64,000 bases of DNA from IMG/VR virus record IMGVR_UViG_2579778842_000003; one strand, 5' to 3'. Numbering within the stretch: position 1 is the first letter of the stretch; each line of letters begins with the position of its first letter. The notes under the pieces were generated by a model that worked only from the letters and a program-made list of their open reading frames with translations, was not told where the DNA came from and made no database searches. Both the position numbers and the translations under genes were made by a program. Positions 45,373 to 46,417 of the stretch are shown here, in pieces. The DNA is from a virus (taxonomy: Duplodnaviria > Heunggongvirae > Uroviricota > Caudoviricetes).

Positions 45373-46200
45373 TTATTTCACCGGAACAAACGGAACAGCG
45401 GTATTACTGGTCATATACTGCGGTAATGTACCGTTCCATTTGTTGATCGCTTCCAACTCCATAACACCGGGGTTCTGGCGCAGAGCTTCACCACGTAAAC
45501 GAATGGCATCAGCTTCGGCCTGGGCTTTTGTGCGAATAGCATCAGCCTGTCCGGCAGCTTCCGCGCGCAGCATGTTGGCCTCTGCTTCACGTTGTTTGAC
45601 CTCTTGCTCGCGTTGCAGGGTTTTTTGGTTTGCCGTGACTTTGGCGTTAATACTGTCAATAACTGTTGGCGGGTATTCTGGCTTACCTACATAAGAGAGG
45701 CTCATCACCTGAATGCCGATTGGCGTCATTTCTTCCTGAATGTCTTTAAGGGCTGCATCAAGCAATTCAGATTTGCCACCGTCGATAAATTTGTCGGTGG
45801 TCATTTTGCTGGCTAACCGGTTCAGAGCATCTGCAACCTTCTGGCGTAGATCGGTATCAGTAATATCATCTACACCTTTGCGATAGGTCTGAAATACCGT
45901 TGTGACTTTTGCTGGATCAACCTTGTAGGCTACGCCGATGTGGTAACCAATGGTTGTTCCGTCGCTCATCTGGAAGCTGAACGGCTCATCGTATGTCTTC
46001 ATTTGCTTAAAGGTCGGGAAGATATAAACTTCAGTATTCAAGCCTGTCCAGTAGCGACCAACGCCAACTACTTCACCGATACCTTTATCATCCCCCAGCT
46101 TATTTACTTTGATCCCTACGTTACCTGGCTCTACCCGATCGCATCCGGTCAGACATAAAGAACCCAAAATAATCGCTGCACTAATCAACGTTTTTTTCAT
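45373..46200 (-). CDS. SPFH/band-7 domain lipoprotein
   Basis: 275 aa; signal peptide and lipobox (LCLTGC); central SPFH-like region and Ala/Glu-rich coiled-coil C-terminus. Confidence 0.6.
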   Translation of the reverse strand: MKKTLISAAIILGSLCLTGCDRVEPGNVGIKVNKLGDDKGIGEVVGVGRYWTGLNTEVYIFPTFKQMKTYDEPFSFQMSDGTTIGYHIGVAYKVDPAKVTTVFQTYRKGVDDITDTDLRQKVADALNRLASKMTTDKFIDGGKSELLDAALKDIQEEMTPIGIQVMSLSYVGKPEYPPTVIDSINAKVTANQKTLQREQEVKQREAEANMLRAEAAGQADAIRTKAQAEADAIRLRGEALRQNPGVMELEAINKWNGTLPQYMTSNTAVPFVPVK

Positions 46201-46417
46201 TAATTAATTTCCTGGTTTTTTCACGAAAAAAGACTACTGCGAAAGCCGGGTAAATGAGCGCGAGAAGGACTCCCAACAATACAAGTATTGTGCTGTTAGA
46301 TGAGATCATATTTGGCAAAAGCCAAACATACAGAACCAGTGACACAATCAAACAGAGGACGGCATAAATATATAACCGCACCCATAGCGTTCGACATTTG
46401 TTCGGATTGTTCTGCAT
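46181..46417 (-). CDS. small two-TM membrane protein upstream of the SPFH lipoprotein
   Basis: 78-aa ORF; overlaps the SPFH gene start. Confidence 0.4.
   Translation of the reverse strand: MQNNPNKCRTLWVRLYIYAVLCLIVSLVLYVWLLPNMISSNSTILVLLGVLLALIYPAFAVVFFREKTRKLINEKNVD

Follow-up and report, generated by a model that had tools for sequence, protein, structure and literature searches.

The stretch of DNA analysed here, referred to as the window, comprises 64,000 nucleotides of the virus record IMGVR_UViG_2579778842_000003 (Caudoviricetes) and belongs to a P1-like phage or phage-plasmid, its positions 45200-47400 being 100% identical to 'Punavirus P1' MH422554 and two further P1 records. On the minus strand it encodes an SPFH/Band 7 lipoprotein of 275 aa (45373-46200), recognised as an open reading frame (ORF) and by Pfam PF01145, PHROG 200, an AlphaFold2 (AF2) model and Foldseek, and upstream of it a partner protein of 78 aa (46181-46417), a hairpin of two transmembrane (TM) segments recognised as an ORF and by hydrophobicity, PHROG 1130 and a family alignment. 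Judged from the sequences compared below, Gram-negative phages carry this SPFH lipoprotein as a fixed pair with the two-TM partner, at times fused to it. A tRNA gene with anticodon CAT (45270-45345, minus strand; P1 trnI), which ARAGORN calls Met while the P1 record and the annotation pipeline PGAP call it tRNA-Ile2, lies 27 nt downstream of the SPFH stop codon, and tRNA-Thr (47150-47225) and tRNA-Asn (47228-47303) lie upstream of the pair in the same, minus-strand transcription direction. These coordinates confirm the first-pass annotation of the window, which had placed the pair between tRNA-Ile and tRNA-Thr/Asn and had described a tiny two-TM protein overlapping the lipoprotein start; its observation was right in all particulars, its interpretation in part.

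The two ORFs share 20 nt (46181-46200, minus strand) that are read in different frames and contain a run of seven A residues (A7). The SPFH gene is preceded by the Shine-Dalgarno sequence AGGAA 9 nt upstream of its ATG, the partner gene by GGAG/GAGAGG directly before its ATG. Owing to their overlap the two genes are probably translationally coupled, with the shared 20 nt as the likely site of coupling. A database variant from E. coli (P0001, 347 aa, 98% identical) lacks one A of the A7 run, which fuses partner and SPFH protein in frame, much as in the natural fusions of distant homologues; the A may have been lost by a genuine mutation or only in the sequencing of the homopolymer. Its fused frame thus stems from the loss of one A and not from frameshifting. 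Programmed -1 frameshifting on A7 was considered as well and discarded, since the SPFH gene is read at +1 with respect to the partner frame and a -1 slip runs into a stop after two codons.

The SPFH-like core suspected in the first-pass annotation was borne out by the profile search. The Pfam Band_7/SPFH profile PF01145 matched residues 22-208 (45577-46137, minus strand) with E=9.7e-31 and 107.6 bits against a gathering score of 23.6, covering positions 2-176 of its 176, and the Pfam scan of the 275-aa protein gave no other significant domain. PHROG 200 'lipoprotein' was matched end to end (E=2e-113). The top NCBIfam matches were weak, with 24.7 bits for hflC (cut-off 134.4) and 23.3 bits for hflK (cut-off 159.4), and the closest sequence in the PDB was E. 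coli HflK (E=1.8e-4, about 20% identity). The AF2 model, a monomer built from 26 homologues with a mean predicted local distance difference test score (pLDDT) of 81.9, shows an SPFH alpha/beta domain, one helix of 65 residues, a short helix and a C-terminal tail with the pattern KWNGxLP...PF, which has low AF2 confidence, yet is conserved in sequence. The long helix (residues 178-242; 45475-45669, minus strand), assigned from the AF2 secondary structure, is the counterpart of the coiled-coil wall element in SPFH cages, and both phmmer and Foldseek align it with the coiled coil of HflK. Searched against the PDB, the model retrieved HflK (4e-13), HflC, erlin1/2, prohibitin, stomatin, flotillin, QmcA-YbbJ (E=4.7e-8 for QmcA) and the major vault protein, all with a Foldseek probability of 1.00; these relatives are the SPFH proteins that form rings and cages, and with its SPFH domain, long helix and conserved tail the protein has their complete layout. 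Many homologues carry the label 'serine protease', which we discarded as Pfam finds Band_7 alone and no protease domain; the label seems to have arisen by annotation drift from 'membrane protease subunit, stomatin/prohibitin homologue'. A scan with PADLOC-DB 2.0 matched the SPFH protein to no defence-protein model and the partner merely at chance level (E=0.023).

The N-terminus of the SPFH protein reads MKKTLISAAIILGSLCLTGC followed by DR and consists of a KK n-region, a hydrophobic core and the lipobox L-T-G-C, so that the signal peptide read from the translation occupies codons 1-20 (46141-46200, minus strand). The lipobox pattern [LVI][ASTVI][GAS]C is satisfied with the Cys at residue 20, which by its sequence context would become lipidated and form the N-terminus of the mature protein. 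Among the 124 family representatives that could be assessed, 77 keep the lipobox at the same position, and this position is conserved in the homologues from Gram-negative phages. Behind Cys20, position +2 is Asp and position +3 is Arg; the Asp suggests retention in the inner membrane in E. coli, although a basic +3 residue may weaken such retention.

Since no solved structure comes closer in sequence or in fold than E. coli HflK/HflC of the FtsH complex, which also lead the NCBIfam matches and share the predicted membrane side, one could imagine a mimic of HflK/C, whose SPFH ring would capture FtsH or displace the host HflKC and alter the degradation of phage or host substrates; lambda CIII alters FtsH-type degradation by another route. 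We regard this explanation as unlikely. The scores far below the equivalog cut-offs of TIGR01933 and TIGR01932 led us to reject HflK/HflC orthology, and by fold, erlin, prohibitin and stomatin match about equally well.

The partner protein contains two hydrophobic segments on the Kyte-Doolittle scale, with the positive charges K7, R9 and R14 ahead of helix 1 and the residues REKTRK behind helix 2. With positive charges at both ends, both termini are predicted to be cytoplasmic and the nine-residue loop between the helices (codons 35-43; 46289-46315, minus strand), defined from the alignments, to lie at the outer, periplasmic face. The loop reads P-N-M-I-S-S-N-S-T and follows the family motif P-x-[ML]-[IV]-S-x-x-[DS]-[ST]. 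PHROG 1130 'membrane protein' was matched with E=6e-16, and Pfam and NCBIfam gave only chance-level matches for the 78 aa. An assignment as NfeD protein was rejected, as no PF01957 match appeared at E up to 1 and 78 aa are too short for the domain. A profile search for the partner returned 132 database proteins, all of them named 'hypothetical' and none with a Pfam domain. By these sequence criteria the partner is a conserved family without a Pfam domain, found here as new.

The link between the two genes was followed through annotated phage records and contigs encoding chosen relatives. In the P2-like phage P88, the N4-like Erwinia phage S6, Pseudomonas phage 5400 and Burkholderia phage E264.1, a partner homologue immediately precedes the SPFH gene, with which it shares 1-20 nt; phage 4MG has one ORF between the two. 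In the Stx2 lambdoid phage LC567830 the partner is an unannotated ORF of 62 aa (2316-2504 of locus L004) with a 4-nt overlap with the SPFH start. A regular expression for the partner motif recovered it at about 60 of 80 close IMG/VR loci, and Stx-type loci were missed because one motif position differs. In a related-locus search with an alignment of seven sequences, the relatives were all at least 92% identical. Three diverged partners were found at ten places, each with a Band_7 gene overlapping the partner by 4 nt; in nine of these, all in lambdoid prophages, the pair is flanked by a cI-type repressor and xis/int, and the tenth, from Pseudomonas, has the repressor with no integrase in view. 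The location of the lambdoid prophage pair in the leftward early region from cI to int, where cIII-type functions reside, speaks for the HflK/C mimic considered above. In P88 the pair lies between cox and a replication gene.

Partner and SPFH protein are moreover joined in one ORF in 17 of the 150 best family representatives (profile E 4e-12 to 5e-4). The partner domain is N-terminal in 16 of them and C-terminal in one (P0269), and the same loop motif is kept. In the N-terminal fusions, what was the signal peptide persists as a third hydrophobic segment, in agreement with a cytoplasmic partner C-terminus and a periplasmic SPFH domain. The conserved adjacency and these natural fusions strengthen the general idea, put forward in the first-pass annotation, that SPFH proteins work with small membrane partners.

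The partner might of course be a chance ORF, with the SPFH gene alone being real, as PGAP and several phage records leave it without annotation, for instance in NZ_CP033848 (L108) and MH422554. Its 132 database homologues, the loop motif shared across unrelated phages and across phyla, the Shine-Dalgarno sequence ahead of it, its adjacency to the SPFH gene at all ten surveyed places and its fusion to SPFH in 17 independent clusters at 50% identity make this extremely improbable, and on such sequence comparisons the view is effectively refuted already. The DNA similarity of about 87% between window positions 45373-46147 and P88 and Stx-converting phages stops at the lipobox codons (about 46146); beyond them signal peptide and partner have diverged, the partner having 46% protein identity where the SPFH protein has 93%. 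The end of the similarity at the lipobox places a recombination junction at the start of the mature SPFH protein.

The pair resides on a cassette of 1088 bp (45355-46442) that has cleanly taken the place of the 716 bp with tciC-tciB-tciA in reference P1, as defined by blastn and the junction sequences: similarity to NC_005856 ends at 45354 and restarts at 46443, and the cassette has no counterpart there. The tci allele consists of the TerB-like TciA and two tiny TM peptides, TciB and TciC, in the same slot and orientation in the ban operon, and with these proteins in the other allele the slot has a membrane-stress theme. In a published survey of P1-like phage-plasmids the slot is variable region 7, one of eight variable accessory regions. 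The conserved flank is present in 557 PLSDB plasmids, of which 195 (about 35%) have the SPFH cassette, at an identity of at least 99% in 153 of the 195, and 289 have tciABC. A published statement, according to which nearly half of the P1-like phage-plasmids have 'lost' tciABC, is accounted for by these allele numbers.

A comparison with the P1 plp/upl region, as proposed in the first-pass annotation, proved to be misdirected. Homologues of P1 upl (46610-46801) and plp (46802-47179) are present in the window on the plus strand, adjoining the cassette, unrelated to it in sequence and encoded alongside it, whereas the genes replaced by the cassette are tciABC. Plp (125 aa) and Upl (63 aa) share the neighbourhood with the pair, and Plp is also labelled 'putative lipoprotein', but both differ from it in strand and sequence. 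The upl/plp region (46560-47179) contains 25-nt direct repeats (46598-46622 and 46877-46901, 96% identical), 24-nt repeats at 46560, 46821 and 47054, and a hairpin of about 120 nt (46817-46936), and looks like a set of repeated structured-RNA units on the minus strand. The plp ORF has a TTG start, is rich in Cys and Ser and overlaps tRNA-Thr, and the upl and plp promoters predicted in NC_005856 lie within tciA, a segment missing from the window; the plus-strand upl and plp may be spurious ORFs.

A DNA-level match was found in 460 of 5426 complete E. coli genomes, at 201 places on plasmids and at 310 on chromosomes, where it belongs to prophage variants of about 86% identity. An SPFH homologue was detected by tblastn in 795 of 50,697 phage records. 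The carriers are mostly virulent and include Staphylococcus Kayvirus, Enterococcus Schiekvirus, N4-like phages, Vequintavirinae, Ounavirinae, Bruynoghevirus, crAss-like phages, Caulobacter phages and haloarchaeal viruses. A HMMER scan of 1.84 billion cluster representatives gave 222 clusters at E<=1e-30 and 952 at E<=1e-10, and BFVD holds many Band 7 proteins from phages and giant viruses. SPFH matches in T4-like phages had been tabulated by 2006, and the sequence itself is already in public records as 'SPFH domain-containing protein'. The remark in the first-pass annotation that this is an unusual cargo for a phage is hence contradicted by the 795 phage records, the 195 plasmids and the BFVD entries. 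The occurrence of the family in virulent phages of Gram-positive bacteria and of archaea also weighs against a mimic of HflK/C.

The SPFH proteins of crAss-like phages, Caulobacter phages, haloviruses and phages of Gram-positive bacteria carry either a TM anchor or a lipobox, and a small non-homologous ORF with 1-4 TM segments adjoins their genes. Loci from two virulent lineages that are unrelated to each other bring lysis into consideration. In Kayvirus MSA6 (L009) the order is lysK-mbpV-mbpS-x-tgl, with the endolysin gene lysK and the transglycosylase gene tgl, and its authors noted that MbpV is holin-like and speculated on a role in Tgl export; in the crAss-like phage PhiCrAssBcn2 (L010), the SPFH gene is followed by a multi-TM ORF of 108 aa and a peptidoglycan hydrolase. 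An SPFH assembly could accordingly act as an accessory of lysis timing, keeping holin, spanin or secreted lysis factors confined or stable within the membrane. We consider this improbable for the pair in the window, as the pairs of P1, P88, lambdoid and N4-like phages lie in early regions and not beside lysis genes, and the Kayvirus and crAss-like partners have no detectable similarity to the two-TM family.

The transcription of the cassette was assessed from its surroundings, with statements on the ban operon drawing on the GenBank annotation of NC_005856 and on known P1 genetics. The genes follow one another on one strand in the order Pban/Op72, tRNA-Asn, tRNA-Thr, cassette, tRNA-Ile2 and ban. 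A bivalent C1 operator, Op72a/b (47959-47986), overlaps the ban promoter; it was located by a consensus scan and by annotation transferred from NC_005856, and consists of a perfect consensus at 47970-47986 and a copy with two mismatches at 47959-47975. The operator/promoter stretch is identical to that of NC_005856, and the 321-base alignment shows a single 1-base indel, in an A-run further along. Operator-constitutive bac-1 mutations at Op72 make ban constitutive, from which it follows that Pban transcripts run through the slot, and the Op72/Pban region is likely where transcription of the tRNAs, the cassette and ban starts. Across the window the C1 operator consensus has 12 matches with up to three mismatches, compared with 0.44 expected by chance, and these scattered matches fit a P1-type immunity network.

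A promoter of its own was sought for the cassette and dismissed: a consensus scan of 44900-48100 gave no sigma-70-like promoter, and the cassette carries just about 25 nt upstream of its first ATG, which hold only a Shine-Dalgarno sequence. Lacking its own promoter and sitting in the C1-controlled ban operon, the pair is likelier to be expressed in the lytic phase than in lysogens. The temperate phages also have it in early operons (cox to replication in P88, cI to xis/int in the lambdoid phages), and the genes of the tci allele are reported to be induced in lytic infection by P1vir. As most carriers of homologues are virulent and the temperate pairs reside in early operons, we favour a lytic-phase role, and the pair probably has a lytic-phase function. 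The lysogen framing of the first-pass annotation is not supported by this setting.

Next to the cassette, a structured element (46451-46571, minus strand) folds into a closed multibranch structure of -53.3 kcal/mol (z=-3.3), and directly at the cassette junction its closing stem runs into U6. This U-run (46443-46450) is specific for the SPFH allele, reference P1 having CCUUAUUUCC there. The element has a sub-threshold match to the prophage sRNA family STnc100 (RF02076) with 37.8 bits, compared with a gathering threshold of 47, and E=1.6e-6, and together with the U-run (46443-46571) it could be a small RNA or an attenuator in the ban operon leader.

SPFH proteins build cages that fence membrane clients, as in HflK/C-FtsH and with prohibitin, erlin, stomatin and flotillin. 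Taken together, the above leads us to a reading to which we assign a probability of roughly 0.5, namely that the pair forms an SPFH ring or cage facing the periplasm with the hairpin protein as subunit on the inner membrane, is made in lytic growth and has a role at the membrane or in exclusion. Cleavage of the signal peptide would yield a lipid-anchored lipoprotein facing the periplasm, on the same side as HflK/C, copies of which would assemble into a ring or cage at the periplasmic side of the inner membrane; we are rather confident of this orientation and oligomerisation. The hairpin protein would be the integral-membrane component of an assembly that fences a membrane patch or a host membrane client, and that it is a subunit of the SPFH assembly appears probable. 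Production of the cassette would set in once C1 repression is lifted, in early lytic growth, and the pair would not be a lysogenic-conversion gene; that it is made mainly in lytic growth we hold to be somewhat less assured, yet still the better expectation. As for its purpose, we would give first preference to insulating or stabilising the inner membrane of the infected cell, be it to exclude superinfecting phages or colicin-like insults or to avoid premature lysis, because the cassette is interchangeable with the TerB-type tci genes, apparently expressed early, and widespread in virulent phages. The capture or modulation of FtsH or another inner-membrane machine would come second, HflK/C being the nearest relative and located at the same membrane side, and lysis timing third, as the gene adjoins lysis genes in Kayvirus and crAss-like phages.

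Several observations weigh against this reading. Between Pban and tRNA-Asn lies a strong hairpin resembling an intrinsic terminator (47777-47796, minus strand; 8-bp stem and U7), and if it terminates, tRNAs, cassette and ban would need read-through to be transcribed from Pban; the terminator or the structured element may attenuate transcription of the cassette, or a promoter may have gone unrecognised. The hairpin falls within the 'dicF-like region' of the P1 record. The +2 residue of the lipoprotein varies in the family, with S, T, D and G most often, and given this variation and the ambiguous sorting signal of Asp +2 with Arg +3, the lipoprotein may instead be located in the outer membrane. 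Under CRISPR interference the tci allele was dispensable for P1 plaque formation, which makes the slot accessory. Literature searches found no experiment on, or tested function of, any member of the subfamily, and according to a 2026 paper it 'remains unclear' why phage genomes contain it. Finally, the HflK/C-like protein PM0222 of a Pasteurella prophage has been detected in lysogens and in outer membrane vesicles; it acts via Toll-like receptors 1 and 2 (TLR1/2), and its deletion attenuates virulence.

PM0222, which may belong to the same subfamily, is also the reason why some weight remains with lysogenic conversion, in which the pair would be a moron expressed in lysogens that alters the envelope with respect to superinfection immunity, stress tolerance or, through a surface or vesicle lipoprotein, host interaction or virulence. 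PHROG 1130 is filed under 'moron, auxiliary metabolic gene and host takeover', the cassette is kept at 99-100% identity in 153 plasmids and its slot counts among the variable accessory regions of P1-like phage-plasmids, all of which would suit such a gene. The cassette, however, has no promoter of its own inside a C1-repressed operon, and lysogenic conversion is meaningless for the strictly virulent phages that make up most of the carriers, so we consider this explanation unlikely. A bolder reading, to which we give a fairly low probability, would extend the periplasmic cage to phages in general, temperate as well as virulent, as a two-component SPFH device for the early sequestration of a host inner-membrane machine such as FtsH or a DNA-entry route, or for the exclusion of competitors.

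The compact lipoprotein version of SPFH recurs in phages of bacteria and archaea, and in P1-like phage-plasmids the SPFH pair is one of two common alleles of the tci slot. The vague label 'SPFH domain protein' thereby gives way to a two-component system open to testing in the phage that is easiest to handle genetically. If true, the cage would represent a new class of phage device for host takeover or exclusion that is interchangeable in P1 with the TerB-type tci genes. Established concepts are left unchanged, and what is added is modest: the conserved and at times fused partner and the allelic relation to tciABC. The literature searched yielded no description of the conserved or fused partner, or of such a two-component system without NfeD.

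Among the known systems, E. coli HflK/HflC are closest to the SPFH protein, with the best sequence (E=1.8e-4) and fold (E=4e-13) match among solved structures, an SPFH domain followed by a long coiled-coil helix and a C-terminal tail, and the same predicted periplasmic side of the inner membrane. They differ in being anchored by an N-terminal TM helix instead of a lipobox Cys, and in forming a K/C heteropair, whereas the cassette has one phage-borne SPFH gene and a two-TM partner. The SPFH-NfeD operons, such as QmcA-YbbJ (PDB 8z5g), YqiK-YqiJ and B. subtilis FloT-YuaF, likewise have a small membrane gene directly upstream of the SPFH scaffold. The cassette partner is a two-TM hairpin without NfeD or OB-fold, and for lack of NfeD the pair is not a strict SPFH-NfeD operon, although the gene organisation is alike. 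The SPFH domain of QmcA furthermore faces the cytoplasm, whereas the cassette lipoprotein is predicted to face the periplasm.

Within phages, the proteins of PHROG 200/1130 (Erwinia S6 gp045/gp044, the P88 pair and the 'serine protease' of Stx2 phages) are 69-93% identical for the SPFH protein and 29-46% for the partner, and have the same gene order and overlap. Their genomic slot differs by phage type, and the mature SPFH part has about 87% DNA identity, with signal peptide and partner diverged. Kayvirus MbpV/MbpS resemble the pair in that the gene of a small single-TM protein precedes that of an SPFH membrane protein and overlaps it by 1 nt, MbpS being 24-26% identical to the SPFH protein of the window, but there the SPFH protein is TM-anchored, the partner has no detectable similarity and the genes adjoin those for lysis. 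The tciABC genes of P1, in turn, share the slot with the cassette and likewise constitute a membrane-directed accessory module with tiny TM peptides, but are unrelated to it in sequence and feature a TerB instead of an SPFH domain.

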